A stretch of 24,224 nucleotides of DNA from Vermamoeba vermiformis (Eukaryota), in the NCBI GenBank assembly GCA_045837725.1, contig JBEWZL010000244.1, positions 496,001-520,224 on the forward strand. Reading direction: 5' to 3'. The position numbers and the translations under genes are program-made. Positions 7,151-24,224 of the stretch are shown one piece after another; position 1 is the first letter of the stretch, and every line of letters begins with the position of its first letter. The notes beneath the pieces were generated by a model. That model saw only the letters and a program-made list of their open reading frames with translations. It did no database searches and was not told the origin of the DNA.

Positions 7151-8973
7151 CTACAGTCGGGAGTTTCGTCTGTTTTGGATCTCGACGTAATCCTTGGGTT
7201 GAGGACCTAAAAGCAACAATATAAGTAACATGTCACCACTAACTGCAAATGCTTACCATTGTAGACGGAGGACGGGCGGATCAACTTGTTGTGTTGGCGT
7301 TGTTCGATCACGTGCGCGACCCATCCAGAAGTACGCGACACAACAAAGATTGGTGTAAAGAAGCTCGTGGGCACACCGCATTGGTTATAAGCGGAGGCAC
7401 TGTAGAAATCTAATTATGTGATCGTTAGTAATTGAATTGGATTCTCTGTGATCCGAGTGATCACTTACCCAAATTGGTGAACATTTTTTTCTCGCGCTCC
7501 ATGACCTGCAATGGTTGTAAGTTCGTGTTACCATCAATTACAGCGCAATTTCATACCTTGTCAATACGTTCGCTGACAGCGAAGAGCATGGGACTGCCAT
7601 AAGGTTGCTCGCTCAACTTCTTGCTCCAAGACTTGATGATAGGACTGCGCGGATCTCCTCGCTTGTAAACACGGTGACCAAAGCCAAAGATCAACTCCTT
7701 GCGGTGCAACATATCCAACAGCTGGTACGCGTTAGGTTAATCGTGGCTCGTGCCCAATAGTAGTAGTCTACTTACACCTTTCTCAGCTTCGTCAGGAGAA
7801 GAGAACTTAGCAATCAAGTTCATGGCGGCTTCGTTGGCGCCACCGTGCAAAGGTCCGCGCAAGGCACCAATCGCGGCAGTGATACAGCTGTGCATGTCTG
7901 ACAGGGTGGAGGCGACAACACGAGCAGTGAAGGTAGAGGCTATACATTATTAGAACGAGTGTTAAAAGTTAGTTAATAGAACGGTGTACCGGTGAACTCG
8001 TGCTCAGCGTAGAGGATCAACGATACTTCGAAGGTGCGGACGCGGAGCTCATCAGGCTAGTTGTCATTTGTTAATAAAATATACTCTATTGCAGTGTCTA
8101 ACCAGTTACTTACCTCTTTGTTGTCGTTGTATAAAAGCTTCAAGAAATTTCTTGCGATAGTGTCGGTGGGCTTGGTTTGTGTGTTAATACGTTGCTTAGA
8201 GTGGTGGAAATGGTGCCAATATAACAGCGCGGGGCCTTGAACAGCGATCAATCGCTCGCCAATCTTAACACCGGTCGTGGCGTCCATCGCTGATTCCGGT
8301 TCGAGTGTCTAACACGTGTTTCAATTAATATTTCTATTTTAAGAAGTGTCTGTATTGCGCGGGTACTTACGCCGAGAACAGACACTGTGCTTCTGAGAAC
8401 ATCCTAATATAATAATTTAATGAAGGTGAGTTCACGAGATGAAGTTCTGTGGATCGTACCATTGGATGCGCGGTGGGTGGAGTATTTTCCAACACGACCT
8501 TGAGAGATGCAGGCAGGTCTCTTAGTGAGGCCATATAGCGAATATAATTATCGAGTTCTGCGCGAGTGGGAAGTTCACCGTGTAACAATAAGTAGGCCAC
8601 CTCTTCGAAGCACTCACATTTTTCAGCGAGATCTAAGTATGGTATTTATTATTAAAACAATACTTGGGTGCATATAATAAAATAATAGCATTTCTGTAAA
8701 ATTATGGCAAAGAAGTAATTTTTCAAAAATTGGATCGAGAGCGGTACCTCTTGGACGGAAAGATTTTCATTGTGAATCGCAGAAAAGTAATTAAGTAAGG
8801 AGGTACTAAATATGAATGCTACGGATATCATTATAAAGCTTGGGTTAGCGAAAGTTACCTTTGATGTCGTAGCCGCGATAGTTCAATCCGAGTCCTTGAC
8901 CCACTGTGCAAATAGCTGACTCGCCGACTGCAATGCCAGCAAGACCAGCAACAATTTTTTGTTCTTCAGCCAT
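7151..8973 (-). CDS. prpC: 2-methylcitrate synthase / citrate synthase (bacterial PrpC type), predicted peroxisomal; multi-exon
   Basis: MAEEQKIVAGLAGIAVGESAICTVGQGLGLNYRGYDI, FEEVAYLLLHGELP, LYAEHEF, GPLHGGANEA, FGFGHRVYK.GDPRS, FTNLDFYSA, SRTSGWVAHVIEQR..NKLIRP; ends RRNSRL* (TAG 7153-7151). Confidence 0.88.
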
Positions 8974-9170
8974 TTATATTGCTCTTCGTGTAATCAACAA
9001 TAAAAAATGAATGATCCGCGCCATTATAATTTTTATCTCCTTGTGGAAAAACACACAAACACCGGTGACTTATTCTATAATTAGTGACAAGGCTTTTTGA
9101 GGCTCTATGCGGAAATTGGCTATAACTTTTCGTCTCCCGATCGCAGTCAGCAATTTCACTCGCAACAATC
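8974..9170. promoter_or_regulatory. Short bidirectional promoter region between prpC-like and folate fusion genes
   Basis: Only ~197 bp separate the two divergent ATGs (8973 minus, 9171 plus). Positional inference only. Confidence 0.5.
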
Positions 9171-12100
9171 ATGGCGACTAACAACAGAACTATTAAAACC
9201 TTGCTTATCGATAATTATGATTCGTACACCTTTAACTTATTTCAATATTTGGCCGAAGTGAACGGAGAAGAGCCAGATGTAATCTACAATAATCAGTGTG
9301 ATGCGAATAGAATTTTGCAAGACATCAATGGTGGCAAATATGATAATATTGTCATATCACCTGGACCAGGTTTACCCTCCAACGAGCAAGGTACGTTACG
9401 CGCGGATTTGAATCTCTCTTCTGCTTCTTCTGCGTTGTTGTTTATTGCCGTAAACATTGGAACTGAATACACTTAACATTTATATTAATTTGATAGTATT
9501 AATCCAGATTTTGGTATTTGCGCAGCCTTAATCCGTGAAGCCTCCATCCCGATCCTCGGTGTGTGCTTAGGCTACCAAGGTATTGCAGTGCGGTGTCTAT
9601 ACGAGAAGGTCTGTTAATATATTTGATTAGGCATTGCTCTCGCTTACGGAGCGCAGTTAGCTCCTTCTTCACGAATTGTGCACGGGGAAGTTGGAAGAAT
9701 GCGGCACAATGAGGATCCTTTGTTCAAGGACATTCCCAGGCACTTCGATGCTGTGAGGTACCACTCGTGGATAGTGCAAGACCCATTGCCTACTGAGCTC
9801 GAGCCTATCGCGTGGTGTGAGGAAACGGATCGCGTGAGTGTCTCGCGTACCGATATGTAAGTGCATCGATACTCATCGAGGAAGATGGTAGCTAACTTTT
9901 GCTCACAATAGTGTTATGGCATTAAAGCACAAGTCGAAGCCCTTGTGGGGTGTGCTCTTTCATCCCGGTATGTTCGTCGAGATTTTGTTCGATCTAATCC
10001 GCATGGCTAACTTTCAGCTTTAGAATCGGTCTGCACGTTGCACGGAAAGCAAATATTAAAAAACTTTGCGTCTTTATCGACAAAAGTTGACGTGCACGCG
10101 ATACCTCTGTCAGTAACGCCGTTAGAGCACAAGACGAATACCACACAAGTCAAGTACCTTAAGCACTCAGCAAAATACTTGGCACAACAAACTTCAGCAC
10201 TTTTTGAGTGTCTCTTTAGCGGAGCTATTGATACAGAAAGATTTTGGTTGGATTCGTCACGAGCCGAGCCTGGTCTCAGTCGGTTTTCATTCATGGGCAC
10301 GATGAACGGACCGCACTCGGAAACGATGAGGTATCACGTGAACACTAAGAAGCTTATATTATCAACTGCAGGCAACGAGCGGGAGCAGCTGTTGGCCGAT
10401 GATCAAGATTTCTTTGCGTTCATTCGGTCCTACCTACGCGAAAAAGGGTACTATCACGATGGTAAGTAACATAGTATTTCGGCTTCATTTCGCTAATTTA
10501 CGACTAGAATCATTGCCCTTTGACCTACAGTGTGGTCTTGTAGGCTATTTTGGATACGAGATGAAGTATGAGTCTTTAGCAACTTCAAACCTTCAGCAAA
10601 CCTCGACTCTTCCCGATGCTTACTTGCTGTTTGCTGATCGCATAGTCGTCATTGATCACCAGCTAAACGACATCTATGTTGTTGCACTCTCGTTCTCAGC
10701 TGAGAATGAGGCTTGGTTGCATAGCACACTGGCTCAAATCCAGCAACTCGATGACTCCGCTACTTCAGCTTCAGTCAGCGGAGCTTCCAAGAGTTCCCTT
10801 ACTGTGAGCCTGCGTGCTGATTACAGCACCTATACATGTAAGTCTACAACGTGAGCGAATGTTTAAAGCTAATATGAAACGCGCAGCACAAATCAAGCAA
10901 TGCCTCAAGGAGATCGAGTTGGGTGAGAGCTATGAGCTGTGTTTAACCAATCAGCTCGTAGTTGATGGTTGCACTGTGCCGCCTCTCGAATTTTACAAAG
11001 CACTCCGCGATGCAAATCCAGCGCCTTACGCGTCATTCTTCGACTTCAAGACTTTTTCAGTTGTCAGCTCATCGCCCGAAAAATTCATCTCGCTTGACCG
11101 TCAAGGATTAGTTGAGTCTAAGCCAATCAAAGTAAGTCCTATACCTGCCTTTTCAAGCGTGCACTTAACAGGACTCCAGGGAACAATAAAGCGAGGTGCT
11201 ACGAGTGTCGAGGACGCCGAGTTAAAGCAGAAATTGCAGACGAGCAAAAAAGACTTTGCGGAGAATTTGATGATCACAGATCTCATTCGCAACGACTTGG
11301 GCCGAGTTTGCCAAATTGGGTCTGTTCGTGTTCCCAAGCTCATGGATGTTGAGAGCTACGCAACAGTTCATCAACTCGTCACCACTGTGCAAGGTCAGAT
11401 CAGTCCTCACAAGGACGCAATTGACTGCTTCAAAGCTGCATTCCCACCAGGGTCAATGACTGGCGCTCCTAAGCTGCGCTCAACGCAAATACTAGAAAGG
11501 TAAGTTCTCATGTGGCATATTGAATGAAGCTGACTTGAGTGCCAGGTTGGAGGGTAGACCGAGAGGAATCTATTCTGGAGCTATTGGCTACTTCTCGCTC
11601 AACCAAACGTGTCACTTTAATGTTGTTATACGCACAGCTGTCATGCATAACAACTCGATTTCTATTGGCTGCGGAGGTGCTCTTGTTATGGAGTCCAACG
11701 CCGATGAAGAATTCGAAGAGATGTTATTGAAGGGTCGCGCATTGATTAGAACTTTGGCACGATTATCCGGTCAAGATGACGATGTCAGAATAGTTGGCGC
11801 AACAAAGAAGGCGGAGTTCAATGGCGTCAAATACTTGGAGGATCTTTCAACGAAGAGTGGCGCGTTGGATTTATCATTAGACAGAATCAAGCGCGTGCTC
11901 TCGCTACTAAATCAGCCGCAAGAACAAGTGCCTATGATCCACGTGACTGGCACGAATGGCAAGGGCTCCGTGTGCGCGTACATCTCATCGGTACTCATAG
12001 AGAAAGGACTTAAAGTCGGCCGATTCACTTCGCCGCATTTGATTCGCTGGCACGAGAGCATTCAAATCAACAACATGGACATCGGCGACGACGAATTTAA

Positions 12101-13830
12101 CGAGCTCTTTTATGAGGTCTATCGAGTGACTCAACAGAACAATGCACCGCTGTCACAGTTCGAAGCGCTGACAGTGGCTGCGTACTTACATTTTGCCAAG
12201 TCCAAATGTGATGTCAATGTTATCGAAGTTGGCATGGGAGGCAGAGACGATGCAACAAACGTCTGCAGCTCACCCTTGATGTGCGTCATCACGTCGATTG
12301 GCTTGGATCACATGGCATTCTTGGGCAACACGCACGTGAAGATTGCCGAGAACAAGGCAGGAATCATTAAAACCGGTCGTCCTTGTGTCATATCAGGCAC
12401 TATTATCACCGAGGCTCGTGAAGCGATTGCCAAGTACGCTCACAATTTGAATGCGCCGTTGCACATCGTCAACTCTCCAGCCACGTTAATTGACGAGACA
12501 AGTCAGCTCGCAGAGTTCGAAGGCCTGAAATATCGGTTGCCGTTGCTTGGCGAGCATCAATTGATGAACTCAGCATTAGCCATTACCGCACTGCGCTTGT
12601 TGAAAGACCACTCTTCGAGCATGTTGTTCAACCTGACTGATGACGATATCGCCAATGGCATGTACCGAGTGCGATGGCCTGCAAGGTTGCAATTCATCGC
12701 GTGGAACAACAAACGAGTGCTAATTGACGGTGCTCACAATGAAGAAGGAGGCAGAGCGTTGCGTCGCTTTATCAACAAATTGAAAGCTCCTGATGGCACT
12801 GCCATGAAGATCAATTGGATAATGGGAATGCTATCTTCCAAGGATCACAGCCAATTTTTCAAAGAGACATTAGCACCTGGAGACTCATTGACTATAGTCC
12901 CTGTTGCTCCGAACGTTGACTGGTTATTTACGGCAGATACAAATGTCCTTGTTCAAAAGGCACGAGACATCTGCCCGCAACTGCACGACGTTCACGAGCA
13001 CGCTAGTGTTTACGAGGCTTTGGACTATTTAACTGCAAGACAGGATAGCGATGACTTCAGTCACGCTGCTAATCGTCTAATCGTTGTTTCGGGCTCATTG
13101 CATCTGTGTGGCAATGTGCTGGCTAAGGCGCTTGGTTTCTCATTGCTGGAAACAATGCTGTACGATCCAAAGCTTCAAAACGGCTCGATATTCCTTCTAC
13201 CTGAACATCTTGCTCGACTGACTTCCTCAGCTCAGTACTTCAATATTCCCGTCAACGCAGCAAAGATTCAACAGCAGCTGGCTGCTATTGCTTGCACTTG
13301 GCATACACCAAAGAGAGTCCGCCTGTTAGTGCACCCACAGCGCAACAACGAAGTCGAAATTCAAGCGCACGATGTTATCTACGACTTCGATCAGTTTCCT
13401 CCATCAAGACTAAAGCTAGCGACAAGGGCTATCTCCAAACGCAACGTGTTCCTCTACCACAAAACAACACAGAGAGACGTGTATGAAAACGCCAAGCTTG
13501 ACACCCACAATTGTGGTATGTGACTACAGTATAGTTTAACTCGAGTCGAGTTATTCTTATTCTTCGACGACAGATGACGTTATCTTATACAACGAAGAAG
13601 GACTAGTTACCGAAACAACAATAGGCAATATAGCTGTCCGATTCAAGAATGACGCGGTGTGGTACACGCCACCCATCAGCTGTGGAGTGTTGCCGGGTTG
13701 CATGAGACAACGCATGCTCGACACCGCAGCTCTGACCGAACGCGTCATCACTGTGGACGAGTTGAAGACAGCCGAAGAAATTAAGCTGTTGAACTCTGTG
13801 CGTGGTACATGGGGTGGGGTCTTAAATTAA
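9171..13830 (+). CDS. Multifunctional folate enzyme: glutamine amidotransferase (PabA) + ADC synthase (PabB) + dihydrofolate/folylpolyglutamate synthase (FolC) + ADC lyase (PabC); ~1377 aa, 10 exons
   Basis: Exons 9171-9390, 9508-9579, 9631-9856, 9912-9967, 10024-10461, 10508-10837, 10887-11131, 11180-11499, 11546-13515, 13574-13830 total 4134 nt in frame. PabA: LLIDNYDSYTFNL, ISPGPG, GVCLGYQG, RYHS, FHPES. PabB: SSSPEKF, KPIKGT, ENLMITDLIRNDLG, FPPGSMTGAPK, RGIYSGAIG. FolC: IHVTGTNGKGS, FTSPHL, EVGMGGRDDATN, IDGAHN. PabC: HLARLTSSA, FLYHKTT, VTETTIGN, GVLPGCMR, NSVRG. The last few codons are uncertain (a further small intron is possible). Confidence 0.93.
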
Positions 13831-14690: not shown

Positions 14691-14979
14691 CCCAAAGCGT
14701 GACGCCAACTTCTTCACAGTCCCTCTGGCAGCTTCAATGGCAAGCGTGCAACACAAATTCGAGCCGTTTGCTTACCGTGCGTGAGCACTTGCCGCCAAAT
14801 TTTTTGGATGTGGTCACCCGCCCTGCCAAAATTTTTGGGTGTGCACTCAGCCCGCCAAAACTCACGTCCCTAATCATCATTAATATACCTTTGGGGTTAA
14901 GGTTAAAGGTTGAGGGGTGAAGAGTCCCTGATTGTATGACGTAAAATAAATGAGTTAGTAGAAGTTTATACTCAGTCAA

Positions 14980-15459
14980 AGCATCCGAACTTCGGATGGT
15001 CAAAAACCAGCTTTGAATAACTGATAGCTAGATAGTTAGAGGCATCCGATGTTCGGACGGTTATAACCAGCTATGTACTTCTAATAGCCCATATTCTCCA
15101 ACAAGGGCATCCGATGTTCGGATGGTCTAACAAGTAGCTACAAAAACCTAATAGCTCATTTTTGAATGCATAGGCATCCGATGTTCGGATGGTCTAACAA
15201 GTAGCTACAAAAACCTAATAGCTCACTTTTGATTACATAGGCATCCGAAATTCGGATGGTCTAAAAGTAGCTACAAAAACCTAATAGCTCACTTTTGAAT
15301 GCATAGGCATCCGAAGTTCGGATGGTCTAAAAGTAGCTACGAAAACCTGATATCTCATTTTTGAACGTATAGGCATCCGAACTTCGGATGGTCTATAAAG
15401 TTGCCTGAAAAAGTTAAAGTCTCATTAGAAGGCACAGGCATCCGAAATTCGGATGGTCC
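14980..15459. repeat. Tandem array of 8 palindromic units, period 61-67 bp
   Basis: Core GGCATCCGA-NN-TTCGGATGGTC at ~14980, 15041, 15106, 15173, 15240, 15306, 15372, 15437. Inner linkers are near-identical (AAGTAGCTACAAAAACCTAATAGCTCA); outer linkers are diverged. Confidence 0.95.
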
Positions 15460-15527
15460 AGTTATTTACATATTAGTAGTTAAATGTACTTTATTTATTA
15501 GAAAACAAAGTTAATACAAAAATCAAT

Positions 15528-18029
15528 TTACTTTTTACCTGCTGCTGCTTTAAGGTAATTTAAGGAGTCTTCTCTCTCCTTCTTCGCTTTGCGGCGCTTG
15601 TAATTTGCCAGATCCAGCTTTAAGTGCTGCATCACTTGGCCAGACCCATTGTGATGCATCTCATATACCAAGAACATGTCTCGGGGCATGACTGTCTCAC
15701 GTCTGGCATGGATGGCAGCAAGCTGGGCCATTGCAAAAACATCGCTGATGAAGTACTCAGCACCAAATTGAATAGCCTCCATGGCCGATTTCTGCCAGCG
15801 GATTTCTTCGCGTAGCTCAGGAGGTACGAGGTCCAAAGTGACCTCACGGACGAGTAGCTGAAAGGCTCGTCGACTGATCATGAGCCCTTCTTCGTTTTTG
15901 TAATGTTTCATTTCTTTCATAACTAAAAACATTAAAATTAGCCAAAAAGAATATAGCCGTAAATGTGCAACTTACACTGAGCCCGTTGATGATCTTTCAA
16001 CTCTTTTTTTTGGCTCGGCGACAGGGGCCTGTTTCGCTTCTTCGTTTTCAACAAGTCGTGTTTTTGTCGCTGGAAAACCCTGGCCTTAACAGCTTTTGGC
16101 AACGCCACCACCGGCTCGGATTCGAGGGTAAAATTGTCCTCGGGCTCGTCCTCTTGAATATCATCCTTGTCAATGCTCAGCTGCAACTTTGGCTTTGGAT
16201 AAACCGGATTATCCACTGCTTCGTGGAAAGGAAGCACCCTCTGTCCAAATTCCTGCGTGCTGAACAGATCGAAACTGCGGCGACTTTCCTCACTGGACTC
16301 GCTGGCCTCTTCGTCGGAAACGATGACTCTTGTTTTCTAACAATTTGTTAGTTTCGGTATATACTTTACATTACGGCAAACTTACCTTCTTGGGCCTTGG
16401 GTTGGCATCTTCATCGTCCGAGTGCTTGCGTTTACCAAGTGATTGATCTTCGTACTCGGAGACCTGCTCTTTTTTGTTAGCAACGCGTGTTTACGAATTA
16501 ATTGTCTTACCTCATCACTTGGAACTGGGGTGTTATTGTTCTTCCCCTTGCCCTTCTTTTTCTTCTTCGGGCTTGGCGCCGCACCCTCTGTACCATCACC
16601 AGCACCATCCTCCGTGGTCTTTGAGCTCTTTGATTTTTTGGTGGTAGCACTACCCGCCTTTGATTTTTTAGGAGTTGACGTGGCACTATTTGTCTACGAT
16701 TTAAAAATCAGCTATCTCCGCCCAATAGCCATTATTTAAACATACCTTTTGCGCCTTCGATTTTTTGGGAGTTGACGTAGCACTATTTGCCTTCAATTTT
16801 AAAAATCAGCTATAGTCGCCCAATAGCCATTATTTAACCATACCGTTTGTGCCGTATTCTCAACCTCGGGCTCTCGGTCACTGGGTTCGACTGGGACCTC
16901 CTAAAGTAAAAGGTTATATAAAAACTATGCCAAATAAATACGCACCACCTGTTCTTCAACCTCATCCATGTTTTCGTCGGTGATGGGAGGTGTTGGTGCT
17001 CGGGCAAGCACCTGTGTCGCGTCAGGGTCCGCACTTCCCAGCTCCACCTCAGGGTCCGCACTTTCACGCTCCGATGCCCCGCGAATGATTTGCGTAGCAT
17101 CAGGGTCCTCTGAATTGCCTTCTTCTTCTTGCTGGCCCCTCTCCAAACTCTGGCGATCAGAAGCCTCTTCCCCCGATTGGTGGCTCTGTTCACCATTGGC
17201 AGTGCCACCCGTTGTAGCCTGACGAGCATTACGTGATGGTCGTCTACGGTTAGATCTGCGCTTTGCTGGCGACAGTGACGGCTGTGGATTGGCACCGGCT
17301 TTGCCTTTTACTGGCGTCGGAGGCGGAGCCTTGCCTTTCGCTGACGATGGTGGCGGCGGCGATTTGGCACCAGTCTTGCCCTTTGCCGACGATGGTGACG
17401 GCGACGGCGACGGTGGTGGATTGGCACCGGTCTTGCCCTTTGCTGGCGGTGCTTTGGCGCTAGCCTTTCCCTTTGCCGGCGATGGTGGATTGGCACCGGT
17501 TTTGCCTTTTACTGGCGTCGGAGGCGGAGCCTTGCCTTTTGCTGACGATGGTGGCGGCGGCGATTTGGCACCAGTCTTGCCCTTTGGCGATGCTTTGGCC
17601 GGTGCTTGGCGAATTAAGACGCTAACCGGATCAGTTAGCCGTTAAAATTAATTACAATTTATTAAAAAATAATTACCTGGTAGTTCCTGCTTGCAATACA
17701 CCCGGGGCCCTAATATAAGCGTCAGCGTCGTGCTTTTTATGTAAATAAAATTGTACTTACCTTCTTTGTCGTGGAGAACTACGAGTATTGCCAGATCTAC
17801 GAAATTAAAAATTAAGTAAGCAATTAGAATAAATGATTTCGTTGTAAATATTCTTTCTCATATTTAAAATAAAAATATAATTTAATTTACTTACGTTTCT
17901 GGCTGTTGATCTGCGTCGTTTTTGGATGCGTTCTTATCTCCGGACCTACTCAAATAATTAGTCCCGTATTATATATGTATAACGTCCTGTTTAAACTTAC
18001 TTTGATTTGCTACCCTTAGATTTGGGCAT
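15528..18029 (-). CDS. Giant histone H3 variant (CenH3/CENP-A-like), ~647 aa, 11 exons
   Basis: Exons 18029-18001, 17945-17895, 17796-17761, 17709-17677, 17621-16946, 16900-16844, 16790-16746, 16693-16511, 16463-16386, 16336-15976, 15922-15528 join with consistent phases (1944 nt). The last exon is an H3 fold: KEMKHYKNEEGLMISRRAFQLLVREVT...RWQKSAMEAIQFGAEYFISDVFAMAQLAAIHARRETVMPRDM. Confidence 0.85.
17260..17600 (-). repeat. Coding repeat in H3-variant tail (AKGKTGA-K/N-Pro/Ser-rich units)
   Basis: A ~100-bp block at ~17285-17385 recurs at ~17486-17586; about eight KGK units are embedded in Pro/Ser runs. Confidence 0.85.
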
Positions 18030-18104
18030 TGCGTTTGTGGTATTCAGTTACACGAGCGAAAGTAAAATCTCATTTTTTATTTCTCCTTTTAGACACGACA
18101 ACGC

Positions 18105-19176
18105 ATGGAAAAAGACGATACAATGTAAGTAAATATTCGTATCGATATTATTTACTGCACAAGACTTTATTTTTGTTTGAGTAATTAAAATTTTCGCGAT
18201 CCGAAATTAAAATAATTTTAACACAAAACAAATCGATCCAAAATATTTAAATATTATTAATTTATTTGCTTTTAACGCAAATAACAATTAAAAATATTTT
18301 CTAAGATTAATTGATTTGGACTTCGTGTTGAACAAGTCCACGCAACATCTGCTGGCAACTAGCGCCGGTGTAAGCAAAATTACCGGCATCGCTGTGCCGA
18401 CGGTCAAGAAGTACGCGCTTCAAGGCATAGGTACGATTACGTTTCTAAAACTCAGCTACTCAGATCTAATAGCCTCTTTAGGAAAAAAACTTGCCGCCAA
18501 CGAGCTAGACTCTTCGATGGAGATCCATCGGAGCAAATTAGAGGGCTATTGGTTCGACTTGCCCGCGATAAACGCTGCTATCGCTAATTAAAGTAAAAAT
18601 CCCGAAAAACAAGCAGCTGTTGGTAATGCAGTAAGTGCCCGCTAAGTAAATTTACGAACTAACGCGACCTCAGGGCTGCACTTAGTACTCGTGGATTGGA
18701 CGGTTTGTTCAAGGTCGTGCTCGACGAATCCACACAATGTCTGAAGGTATGAACATAATTAATATTATTTAAAATATTAATCTCGTTCGTCAAAGTTGGT
18801 TCGCTTCGACGAGAACATCGAGGCAATATCCGCAAACGACCCCAAGCTGCTTAGCTCTGCCGATTTGAGATGGCAGACAGCCAAGGAACAGTTGATGCGA
18901 GGCATGGACAAGTTCCCCGTTTGGCTGAATGCCATCTCAAGCAGGTACGGGATTGATGTAAACGATATCCCAGCACCTGAAAAGGAGGCAGACACTGTGC
19001 CCTTCGTGAATCTATTCAACACGTACTACTTTTTAAAAGCCCATGATGACGCCGAGGCGAGCCCCGAGACGAAGACAGAAGAACAAATCGAGGACGTTAC
19101 AACCGATGGATCGGACGGATCGGATAACTCCAGTGATAGCGAGGATGTTATTGAAGACGATTTTATTATCGATTAA
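18105..19176 (+). CDS. Orphan protein with N-terminal HTH-like motif and acidic tail; apparent 1-nt frameshift (pseudogene or sequence error)
   Basis: ATG 18105; donors at 18125, 18431, 18631, 18747 with matching acceptors. TSAGVSKITGIAVPTVKKYA is HTH-like. The frame stops at 18589-18591, but a shifted frame (IKVKIPKNKQLLVMQ|AALSTRG...) splices correctly into the downstream exons and ORF 18796-19176. Confidence 0.55.
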
Positions 19177-21344: not shown

Positions 21345-22240
21345 GTAAGTTTGCAATAATAATATTAATTACAATAATAATATTAACTCGTTTTAAACAG
21401 CTAGGATAATCTTTCGAGAATCTTGCGTTCTCGTTCTCGATCCTGCAGTCTCCCAGCTTCCAAACTCGGTACGTATATTAATATTTATTTACTTACATAC
21501 TAACTGTTTATATTAAGAGCTTACCAGTCTCAATTTTGCGTGGCTCGCAACATCGCCGATACGAATCACGTCTCGTCTTTGCGCAGCGAGTTCCAGCTTG
21601 CAGACTTCACGGTACGTATATTTACGTTGATTTAACTATATTACTAACTTTTTTTAATAATTCAGAACTCATCGAGCCTCAATTCAGCGAGCTCGCAACA
21701 TCGCGCATGCGAATCACGTTCTCGTTCTCGATTCAGTACGATCCCCCAGCTGCCTAACTCAAGGTACGAATATTAAGCTTTATTATAATAACATTACTAA
21801 CTCTTATTTACAGTTCAGAGCTCACCAGGTCTCAAATTTACCGACTCTCAACATCGATGATTCGAATCACGCTTCTCGTGCTTGATTCAGCACGGTCTCC
21901 CAGCCTGCAGACTTCACGGTACGTATATCCACATTGATGTAATTGCATTACTAACTTTTATTTATAATTCAGAGCTCACCAAGTCTCAATTCAGCGAGCT
22001 CGCAACATCGCGCATGCGAATCACGTTCTCGTTCTCGATTCAGTACAATCCCCCAGCTGCCTAACTCAAGGTACGTATATTAAGCTTTACTACAATTACA
22101 TTAGTAACTCTTATTTACAGTTAAGAGCTAGCCGAGTCTCAATTTTAGACACTCGCAACATCGAATCACGTTCTCGTTCTCGATCCAGCACAGTCTCCCA
22201 GCTTACAGACTTCACGGTACGTGTATCTATATTTAATATG
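21345..22240 (+). repeat. Tandem array of ~6 intron+exon-like units (143-155 bp period; 307-bp dimeric higher-order repeat)
   Basis: GTACG donors at 21469, 21612, 21764, 21919, 22071, 22217; TACTAAC-like branch points and YAG/AAG acceptors; shared core CTCGCAACATCG...CGAATCACGTTCTCGTTCTCGAT...CCCAGC. Confidence 0.9.
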
Positions 22241-22697
22241 TGGAAAAACCTGTTTCCTAGGAGTTAGGGTACAAAAGGAAGCTGTTTTGGTGTAAAAACA
22301 TGAAAATAAAAATACCTTAATTTGACGTCAAAAAACGTGCAATTATTAAAAAGTATGCAATTTCAGCAGTTGCTGTGCAACTTCCTGATCTGAAGCCAAT
22401 CAGGAAGAGTACACACCAGGAAAAAAAAAGCCCAAGTTTTTGCTAAAATCTGTTCCTGATTGGGGTCAAATCGGGAAAAAACAACAACATGGTTGATATC
22501 GGCGCAGGTTCGAAGCCCAGTACTTGCAAATTGTTGCCGCCAGGATTCGAACCTGTGTGTAGCAAGCAACAGAATTATAAATGCAATTGGAAAATCCTCC
22601 CAGGGAGGCAGGGAGGCAATTCACCCAAAATTGAGAAAGTCAATCTACATCATTTTAATTACCCCATAACGCAGAGCAACACACAAGTCGCCCAAAT

Positions 22698-24224
22698 ATG
22701 GCAAGGTAAGTCCACGTGCTTTGAAATCTCTGGTGAAATTTCGTTTCCCTGTCCCGATTGGCAGCCAATAGGGAGCAATTTTAAGTTGTTGATTTTACAA
22801 TCCCGATTGGCTGCGTATCGGGAAGATCCAATTTTTTTAATTCGTTGGTAGCGATCCCGATTGGCTCCAGATCGGGAAGACCCAAATTTAACGAGGCCCT
22901 CGTTAACATCCCGATTGGCAGCCAACGGGGGGCATCCCGATTGGCAGCCAATCGGGAAAGCTCAAATTTTACAAGTCCCAAGGGTCATCCCGATTGGCAG
23001 CCAATCGGGAAGGGTGCCCTGGGTTGTTTCTTTGTATCATCCCGATTGGCGCCAGATCGGGAAACCTTTTGGTCTAGTCTACTTACTGCAAACTTACTAA
23101 CCTTTTTAACCTGCAGTAACAACACCAACAGATCGTTCAACCCCCCTCGCCAGCACACCGCAGAAGAGCTGGATAACATGGTACAGCACGTCACAAGGTC
23201 TGTGACCAGGAACTCACCCCCAGCTGCCCAAGGCCCAAACAACAACGTCAGCCCTCCGCGACCTGGCCAAGCAAAGACCCAAGCAGTGGCCAAGGGAGGA
23301 CTCAAGCTCGCCCTGCCAAGGAGCACCATTGGTGGCAAAGCCCAGGCAATTTTGGCTCCGTCAACACCACCCAAGGAAAAGCTTATCCCCCAGTTTGCGA
23401 CCCCAGACAAGTTTCTTATGGCTGAGGCGGATGACTCTTCCTCTGCCGAAGGTGATGCCACTGGTGATGCCATTGGCCAGGACAACTTTGATGGGATCAC
23501 CGACACTCAGGCTATAAGGGCAATCGAGGCTTTGGAGTCCGAAGCTGCTGCAGGATCAACAAGACCCGAGGTTGACGAGAAAGATAGCGAAGTCCAGCAG
23601 CAGATGTCGTTGCGAGAATGGGTGGAGCAGCAAATGGACTTGGTGTCCACCGCGTCAACATCCATGTCCAAATTCAGCGATGACATACGTTCGACAGGCC
23701 CGACAAATGGCAACTGGTATATTGAGCCAGATGCCCAGAACCAAGTGTTGGTTTACCGTGGGACCATGTTCGATGATAAGAACCAGGTCATCAAATTGTC
23801 GGGGCCACAAATTATGCTCAAGGTGGTGAAAGCCAACCCATACCAATGGCTTGCCATGCTAGACTTTTCGCGAGAGGTGCCCACGCTTTACTCACTGAAG
23901 GTTACGTCTTGCTGGGCCGTCGACAGTGTCAATGGATGCCTGAAATCCTGGAAGTTGACAAAGCATACGACAAAAGGCCAAATCAGCTGGAAGTTTGAAG
24001 AGCGGTTCAAAAATTGGAAAAACATGTACGACTTGGCCGTGCAAGAGGGTCCAGTGTCACGACCCGACCAACTGACGGATAACCAGCTCGAGTCCATCAG
24101 AGAGCTTGAAACCAGGGAGGAGGTCATGATCCAATTGAGCACCCCAGCCCCGCCAGCAAAGGACCCCGAACCCACGATTACCGAAGAGCAGCAAGTAAGT
24201 TTCCTGTAATTCTAGAATACATCC
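22698..24224 (+). CDS. Orphan protein, 5' part (continues beyond window); exon 1 22698-22705, exon 2 23117-24194
   Basis: ATGGCAAG|GTAAGT at 22698-22711; branch TACTAAC ~23095 and CTGCAG acceptor at 23116 give MASNNTNRSFNPPRQ... in frame with ORF 22845-24209; next donor CAA|GTAAGT at 24195. Disordered N-terminus then a W-rich, probably globular segment; no family recognised. Confidence 0.7.
22752..23062. repeat. Array of seven 23-bp palindromes (TCCCGATTGGC-A-GCCAATCGGGA) with mostly distinct 26-31 nt spacers
   Basis: Copies start at 22752, 22801, 22855, 22909, 22935, 22988, 23040. The left arm is invariant and the right arm is degenerate in some copies. All lie within predicted intron 22706-23116. 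Confidence 0.92.

Follow-up and report, generated by a model that had tools for sequence, protein, structure and literature searches.

The locus examined here raises the question of whether the unusually long histone H3 variant that it encodes is the centromeric histone of its own host or some other kind of H3. The gene occupies positions 18029..15528 on the minus strand of a 24,224-nt stretch of contig JBEWZL010000244.1 of Vermamoeba vermiformis (assembly GCA_045837725.1, positions 496,001 to 520,224 of the forward strand), hereafter termed the window, to which all coordinates refer. As predicted, 11 exons and ten introns join into one uninterrupted reading frame of 1941 nt, comprising 646 codons and a TAA stop (15530-15528). 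An initial annotation of this DNA had proposed a histone H3 variant of about 647 residues, a length in which the long single frame is right and the stop has been counted, and had considered it to be either the host centromere-specific histone H3 (CenH3) or a paralog borne by a mobile element. The CenH3-like fold is supported by the results below, and we regard the gene as probably the host's own CenH3 (CENP-A class), whereas the element-borne option found no support.

The last exon (exon 11, 15922-15528, 130 aa) is a true H3-lineage histone fold. It matches the Pfam family Histone (PF00125) at 4e-16 and 59.8 bits against a cut-off of 26.4, while CENP-T_C and CBFD_NFYB_HMF score under their Pfam cut-offs on the same exon; it is H3 and CENP-A that are matched, and not H4, H2A, H2B, CENP-T or NF-Y, and all of the 60 PDB matches listed are H3 or CENP-A. 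The top solved relative in a single-sequence search of the PDB is Schizosaccharomyces pombe Cnp1/CENP-A (3e-12), with H3.Y and H3.2 next (about 1e-11), and a profile of the family described below again places Cnp1 first (95.2 bits, with H3 at about 91 and Cse4 at 86.9). An AlphaFold 2 (AF2) model of exon 11, based on an 83-row alignment, has a mean predicted local distance difference test (pLDDT) score of 89.6 and predicted helices at exon-11 residues 2-9, 17-31, 34-39 (within loop 1), 44-71, 79-92 and 95-128. Foldseek matches this model, as its top matches, to nucleosomal H3 chains over 87-91 columns (template modelling score 0.60-0.80 on the target), leaving the C-terminal helix as an extra element. 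Taken together, Pfam, PDB, AF2 and Foldseek delimit an H3-type fold composed of alpha-N, alpha-1, an extended loop 1, alpha-2 and alpha-3 at 15645..15922 of the minus strand.

Residue by residue, the departures of this fold from canonical H3 are those expected of a CenH3 in most respects. Positions are given here in the usual H3 numbering, placed on the alignment with H3.Y (PDB 5ay8, together with nucleosome entries), with which the fold shares about 35% identity. Loop 1 opens five gap positions in H3.Y, being five residues longer than in H3 and one residue shorter than in Cnp1; W stands at the F84 position (IRWQ), A at T107 (AMAQ), and Q68 is kept (AFQLLV), all as the initial annotation had read them. 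Replacement of T107 by A, C or S is itself a mark of CenH3s. Further changes are E105A, D106M and C110A, whereas F67, R72, R83, Q93, E97, H113, R116, T118 and D123 are unchanged. The alpha-C helix of H3 (ARRIRGERA) has been swapped for VYEMHHNGS and 37 residues extend past the end of H3; neither this extension nor the N-terminal tail is related to those of H3. Cnp1 (PDB 9lrv/9lrw) shares with the window protein the extended loop 1, the W at F84 (LRWQ) and the layout from alpha-N to alpha-3, but it is about 120 aa long, its tail is short and its C-terminus is H3-like, whereas the window protein has a tail of 515 aa, ends alpha-2 in AMAQLAAIHARRETV rather than EDTNLCAIHAKRVTI and adds a 37-residue helix after alpha-3. 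The available text of 10.1101/706580 lists five sequence criteria for CenH3s: a tail that cannot be aligned with that of H3, a longer loop 1, loss of F84, no conserved Q68/69 and a C-terminal tail unlike that of H3. Four of these five (tail, loop 1, F84 and C-terminal tail) apply to the window protein, the departure being the Q at position 68.

The size of the protein also has a precedent. According to the available text of PMC2995078, the experimentally centromeric CenH3 of Dictyostelium discoideum (H3v1) is 619 aa long, in agreement with the great length attributed to it in the initial annotation. It resembles the window protein, as far as that text describes it, in its similar size, its very long and unique N-terminal domain and the location of the fold at the extreme C-terminus; its loop 1, on the other hand, is reported there to be shorter than in other CenH3s, and it does not appear among the best 150 representatives of the search described next, so that no specific kinship is shown.

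An exhaustive search of 1.84 billion representative proteins returned 3900 histone-like matches, 45 of them with E <= 1e-10, and the best 150 were examined. Eleven clusters among these 150 (P0001, P0003, P0004, P0005, P0006, P0017, P0018, P0019, P0024, P0052 and P0112) share a set of distinctive marks with the window protein: DTNLCAIHAKRVTIM gives way to (M)A(Q)LAA(I)HA(R)R.T.M, alpha-C is replaced by LVY..H, and the C-terminus is extended. Members of this clade come from short metagenome fragments and show 33-65% identity within the fold. The source contigs of the 20 representatives looked up, from NCBI, ENA, JGI/IMG or Logan, measure 593-24553 nt and are mostly shorter than 5 kb. The family-wide conserved H3 positions are R72, R83, H113, R116, T118 and D123, which we take to be DNA-contact and H3-H3' four-helix-bundle positions; since they are kept, a nucleosomal role is likely. 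In the ten aligned clade rows, the F84 position is occupied by W in eight, I in one and F in one, and the T107 position by A in nine and G in one. Q68 is less uniform, with Q in four of the ten rows, three of which are close relatives, and A, G, G, S, T and C in the others.

Three of the matches also reach beyond the fold. P0151 is 65% identical in the fold, and its upstream part matches the end of exon 10 with 40% identity across 59 residues; it reads through an intron starting QCKL (Q + T|GTAAGTT), that is, at the same donor site as intron 10. P0154 and P0155 are 33% identical in the fold and both carry the motif GRKRKHSGDEDDNPRPKK, counterpart of GKRKHSDDEDANPRPKK at the end of exon 9 (16386..16436, minus strand), with the common pattern KRKHS.DED.NPRPKK; P0155 turns non-coding-looking directly after PRPKK, which is where intron 9 starts here. 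Two intron sites, those of introns 9 and 10, thus appear to be common to the window gene and clade members, and P0151 (for exon 10 and its donor) together with P0154 and P0155 (for the exon 9 motif) links exons 9, 10 and 11 across species. Retention of the GKRKHSDDEDANPRPKK/GRKRKHSGDEDDNPRPKK motif across species would mark it as functional. At the other extreme, P0001 is 96-98% identical to the window protein by different measures, with three residue differences and a two-residue deletion, and may represent a paralogue, an allele or a different strain.

The separation of this clade is deep. In a quick tree search on 135 fold sequences and 92 columns, of which only the clade split is used here, the eight family rows, including the window protein, fall in one group with a Shimodaira-Hasegawa-like approximate likelihood ratio (SH-aLRT) support of 97, a stem of 1.03 changes per site and long internal branches, and outside it fall all nine rows of canonical H3 together with the remaining 118. 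P0153, P0156, P0005, P0017, P0024, P0052 and P0112 were left out of this tree as redundant or short, as were identical rows and those not spanning query residues 6-82. The long stem and internal branches would be as in fast-evolving CenH3s. Beyond the exhaustive search, a metagenome scan yielded 14 loci, 12 of which were translated and correspond to H3 or CenH3 of other eukaryotes, mostly of the DTQLAAIHAKR type, with none of the 12 in the clade. Word-index protein searches, one of them limited to 504-2000 aa, returned no longer relatives and only P0001 as a near match, a result of little weight in that they missed the relatives found by the exhaustive search, and atlas searches returned only generic histone or folate-enzyme clusters. 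Clade members may nonetheless be annotated already in eukaryote proteomes or in fungal lists of CENP-A candidates.

What stands out most in this family is its C-terminus. CENP-A offers a short C-terminal tail to CENP-C, and at this place the window protein carries a basic extension (15531..15638, minus strand) that ends in AGKK and that is modelled as a single long helix (exon-11 residues 95-128), with AF2 block means of 92-98 pLDDT over exon-11 residues 101-130. The basic C-terminal extension of about 35 aa noted in the initial annotation measures 37 residues. A terminal KK is found in the window protein and in seven of the 11 family clusters (AGKK, KAKK, QAKK, TAKK, KGKK, KAKK again and LKKK). 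The extension is conserved, basic and, in the AF2 model, confidently helical, and seems to take the position of the CENP-C-binding tail. A search of titles and abstracts found no CenH3 with a long structured C-terminal extension.

The 515 residues that precede the fold form a tail of low complexity in which basic and acidic blocks alternate (P, K and S at 12% each, A at 10%). All the motifs that had been described for it are present: there are nine copies of KGK, two of TPKK and one of SPKK, a DPDATQ at each of residues 222 and 248, and acidic tracts. Eight of the nine KGK copies lie in the KGK/Pro-rich repeats of exon 5 (17261..17608, residues ~55-170), which resemble the linker histone H1 C-terminal tail in composition, and the acidic part of the same exon (16949..17170, residues ~201-274) contains both DPDATQ motifs. 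Exons 6-8 (16511..16900) carry the two TPKK, the SPKK and a K-rich stretch, and the exon 10 linker (15976..16336), acidic and then basic, runs into the alpha-N helix and matches no Pfam family, its last 59 residues being those that align with P0151; all of these features are on the minus strand. Linker histone H1 and sperm histones carry S/TPKK motifs and Lys/Pro/Ala-rich tails, and the likeness of the window protein to them is one of composition only, as are the tail matches to H1-like stretches of P0028 and P0009; no H1 globular domain is present (no Pfam match) and the motifs sit instead on an H3-type histone. As to the motif that ends exon 9, its shape (KRK, an 11-residue acidic spacer and KKK) suggests a bipartite nuclear localisation signal with a CK2-like acidic core. 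A resemblance of the tail to that of H3 itself, seen earlier in ARQATTGGTA, did not hold up: ARQATTGG is indeed present at residue 182, but the best local alignment of the tail with the H3 N-terminal tail lies elsewhere, and its score is reached by 173 of 1000 shuffles, so that the likeness is not above chance.

On the basis of the fold criteria, the kept nucleosomal positions and the size precedent of Dictyostelium, it seems reasonable to postulate that the window histone is the CenH3 of its host. As such, it would pair with H4 and replace H3 in centromeric nucleosomes. Its 515-residue tail, presumably disordered, would carry the conserved motif resembling a bipartite nuclear localisation signal, the H1-like KGK/Pro repeats and S/TPKK motifs might hold AT-rich linker DNA, and the acidic tracts could serve chaperone or kinetochore contacts. 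Finally, the basic C-terminal helix might stand in for the short C-terminal tail of CENP-A as a docking surface for the inner kinetochore or, alternatively, reach DNA or the acidic patch.

Several points weigh against this assignment. Q68 is retained in the window protein itself, and a structured C-terminal extension of 37 residues is not a usual CenH3 feature. Cnp1 leads H3 by a small margin, about 4 bits, which rests largely on loop length. The phylogeny of H3 and CenH3, suggested earlier as a check, delivers a distinct clade with high support and a long stem, but it cannot prove orthology because CenH3s do not form one clade. The same organism may have a second, more ordinary CenH3, and the centromeric role is deduced from sequence.

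These points feed the main rival explanation, a possible but distinctly less probable one, in which the gene encodes a non-centromeric H3 variant or a specialised CenH3-like paralogue, engaged for instance in spore or germ-line chromatin or in compaction through its H1-like tail, and the true CenH3 is another gene. The retained Q68 fits this explanation, as do two features that are not hallmarks of CenH3, the C-terminal helix conserved in the family and the basic repeats of H1 type; furthermore, the genome may contain other copies of the gene, and P0001, at its 96-98% identity, might be just such a paralogue, if not a strain or an allele. Non-centromeric H3 variants, on the other hand, are usually highly conserved, whereas the clade is no more than 33-65% identical within the fold and sits on a long stem. 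In addition, F84W, T107A and the long loop 1 fall in L1 and alpha-2, which constitute the CenH3 targeting region according to the available text of PMC2995078. Hence, the host CenH3 remains the explanation that we favor for this gene.

The gene model on which the length of the tail depends is, as a whole, borne out. The start ATG lies at 18029, 18 nt downstream of an in-frame TAA, and the predicted exons, all on the minus strand, are exon 1 (18029-18001, 29 nt), exon 2 (17945-17895, 51 nt), exon 3 (17796-17761, 36 nt), exon 4 (17709-17677, 33 nt), exon 5 (17621-16949, open for 673 nt), exon 6 (16900-16844), exon 7 (16790-16746, 45 nt), exon 8 (16693-16511), exon 9 (16463-16386), exon 10 (16336-15976) and the exon 11 described above. 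Each of the ten introns has GT..AG borders and a length of 47-98 nt, a size that leaves no room for internal promoters and makes the gene a single 11-exon unit. Their donors are GTAAGT in six cases and GTATGT, GTATGG or GTAATT in three, the GTGGTG of intron 5 being the weakest, and several present branch-site-like words (CTAAC- or CTAAT-like) shortly before the acceptor. The consistent phase claimed initially for the 11 exons agrees with composition, the introns having a G+C content of 0.16-0.36 and the exons of 0.38-0.61 (0.28 vs 0.53 overall), with the in-frame stop that retention of nine of the ten introns would cause, intron 8 (47 nt) causing a frameshift instead, and with codon usage, for which a score trained on the other open reading frames (ORFs) of the window places the predicted frame first among the sense frames in 10 of the 11 exons, the exception being the 36-nt exon 3.

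Sequence variation and repeats within the gene add to this picture. A near-identical contig from another run shows four differences, two of them intronic and two exonic, and both exonic ones are synonymous. Copies of the KGK repeat are 75, 57, 69 and 75 nt apart, each spacing a multiple of three. A 98-nt tandem duplication at 16655-16853 (87% identical) corresponds exactly to one 45-nt exon plus its intron, so that exon 7 and the start of exon 8 are tandem copies; the duplication is probably recent and shows how the histone tail appears to have grown by exon duplication. On the transcript side, run X10, considered RNA only by guess and with a depth of about 2, yielded two contigs in which introns 10, 6 and 7 are unspliced, which are DNA-like and uninformative on splicing, and three RNA-seq runs with the same species label placed no reads on 15300-18300, a result that counts as no test.

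The least certain part of the model is exons 1-4, which with introns 1-3 (17677..18029, minus strand) supply the start codon and a basic, Ser-rich N-terminus and which are supported by splice signals (GTAAGT/GTAATT donors, CTAAC/CTAAT-like branch sites), by composition (AT-rich introns) and by the reading frame. It is accordingly conceivable, though improbable, that the histone gene is real and its 5' model wrong, with exons 1-4, and perhaps the repeats of exon 5, untranslated or differently spliced and the tail shorter as a result. The small size of exons 1-4 (29-51 nt), for which there is no homologue support, the worse codon-usage score of the predicted frame in exon 3, the weak donor of intron 5 and the lack of RNA-seq reads over the gene, for what an uninformative result is worth, are compatible with such an error. 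Against it, exon 5 is open over its 673 nt in what is the best sense frame by codon usage, level with one antisense frame, and the spacings of its repeats are in frame; no Met occurs in its frame ahead of residue 267 of the joined protein, and upstream exons are therefore needed; and introns 1-4 have strong donors, a G+C content of 0.16-0.31 and stops if retained. A partly wrong 5' model may in any case shorten the tail without changing the nature of the gene.

The weakest explanation, a histone paralogue of a mobile element or integrated giant virus that serves the element's own chromatin, can draw on the tandem and palindromic repeats near the gene (14963-15458 and 21426-23063) and on the H3-like proteins encoded in giant-virus contigs, but is close to excluded by the absence of any transposase, reverse transcriptase, integrase or capsid family among the 20 ORFs scanned, by splice signals and intron sizes that are uniform across the gene, by a window G+C content that stays in one broad range with no step at the gene, and by the fact that all four H3-like relatives found when viral contigs were scanned with the family alignment are ordinary and lack the clade marks. 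The element-borne paralog contemplated in the initial annotation is thus not upheld. Pfam detected no transposon or viral family in those 20 neighbouring ORFs, ten of which matched no family at all, and the neighbours that it did place are housekeeping genes: an actin-like gene (1238-2445), a citrate/methylcitrate synthase and a folate-pathway fusion gene. With housekeeping neighbours, no element families and no viral relatives in the clade, the setting is a normal chromosomal one for a histone gene. Scans with Rfam and for tRNAs found nothing in the window.

Among these neighbours, the citrate/methylcitrate synthase exon (8367-8645, minus strand) is of the bacterial PrpC type, its best solved matches being bacterial 2-methylcitrate synthases (3o8j at 7.6e-15, and 3tqg), which points to such an enzyme within a eukaryotic environment of genes with introns. 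The folate/para-aminobenzoate ORF chain (9126-13830, plus strand) comprises GATase (PabA), anthranilate/aminodeoxychorismate (ADC) synthase N and chorismate-binding (PabB), Mur-ligase M and C (FolC/DHFS-FPGS type) and class IV aminotransferase (ADC lyase) domains; a 675-aa ORF (11496-13523) is stop-free across three of the domains in the chain, which has the appearance of a four-enzyme fusion gene. Genes for folate synthesis, short introns, GTAAGT donors and CTAAC-like branch sites give the window a fungus-like look, which is no more than an impression. Upstream of the histone gene, a possible divergent gene starts at an ATG at 18106 (18106-18132, plus strand; MEKDDTM followed by GTAAGT), 77 bp from the histone ATG. 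An SBF/E2F-like CGCGAAA lies on the sense strand 163 bp upstream of the histone ATG (18192-18198, minus strand), a word that is not enriched in the window (4 occurrences vs 5.1 expected), and the single ACGCGT of the gene sits in intron 8. Some 30-40 nt past the stop, two overlapping AATAAA words (15490..15499, minus strand) may form a polyadenylation signal.

Repeats are found on both sides of the gene. Directly 3' of it, at 14963-15458, eight copies of a ~66-bp repeat are centred on the palindrome GGCATCCGAAnTTCGGATGGTC (period 66, 5.3 copies and 87% matches in Tandem Repeats Finder); they may represent a satellite, a small foldback element or an array of binding sites. A tandem array at 21426-22227 has a period of 153/307 nt, the 307-nt unit recurring about 2.7 times with 81% matches, and contains GTACGT...CTAAC-like words; it could consist of repeated exon-intron units or be a satellite. 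Further on, at 22377-23063, there are nine copies of a 23-30 nt palindrome, TCCCGATTGGCAGCCAATCGGGA, with two inverted CCAAT/ATTGG words, 26-71 nt apart except for one gap of 298 nt; since these palindromes occur at and inside the 5' end of the ORF at 22785-24209, its first part may be non-coding.

The points of spindle attachment on chromosomes are defined by CenH3, whose tails determine the kinetochore and loading proteins that it recruits. Long unique tails are already known to be normal for CenH3s; what is also distinctive here, besides the C-terminal helix, is the H1-like, SPKK-rich tail and the depth of the clade separation. A bolder interpretation, which we consider rather unlikely, is that the clade constitutes an unrecognised form of centromeric histone that unites in one H3 variant three functions usually divided among several proteins: a tail for linker DNA like that of H1, an import/chaperone motif and a structured basic C-terminal helix replacing the CENP-C-binding tail. 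Nucleosome and kinetochore would thereby be coupled in a different manner, perhaps in a lineage regarded as having no CENP-A or CENP-C. The available text of 10.1101/706580 reports Mucorales and Umbelopsidales to be without CENP-A; were the host a member of such a group, the gene would reopen that claim and gain much in importance. If this is only one more divergent CenH3, its value would lie mainly in annotation and in providing a handle for mapping the centromeres of the organism. For the family as a whole, the 515-residue tail and the structured C-terminal helix would represent a natural experiment in the rewiring of the inner kinetochore, in which the conserved tail motif and the C-terminal helix offer two precise targets for deletion.

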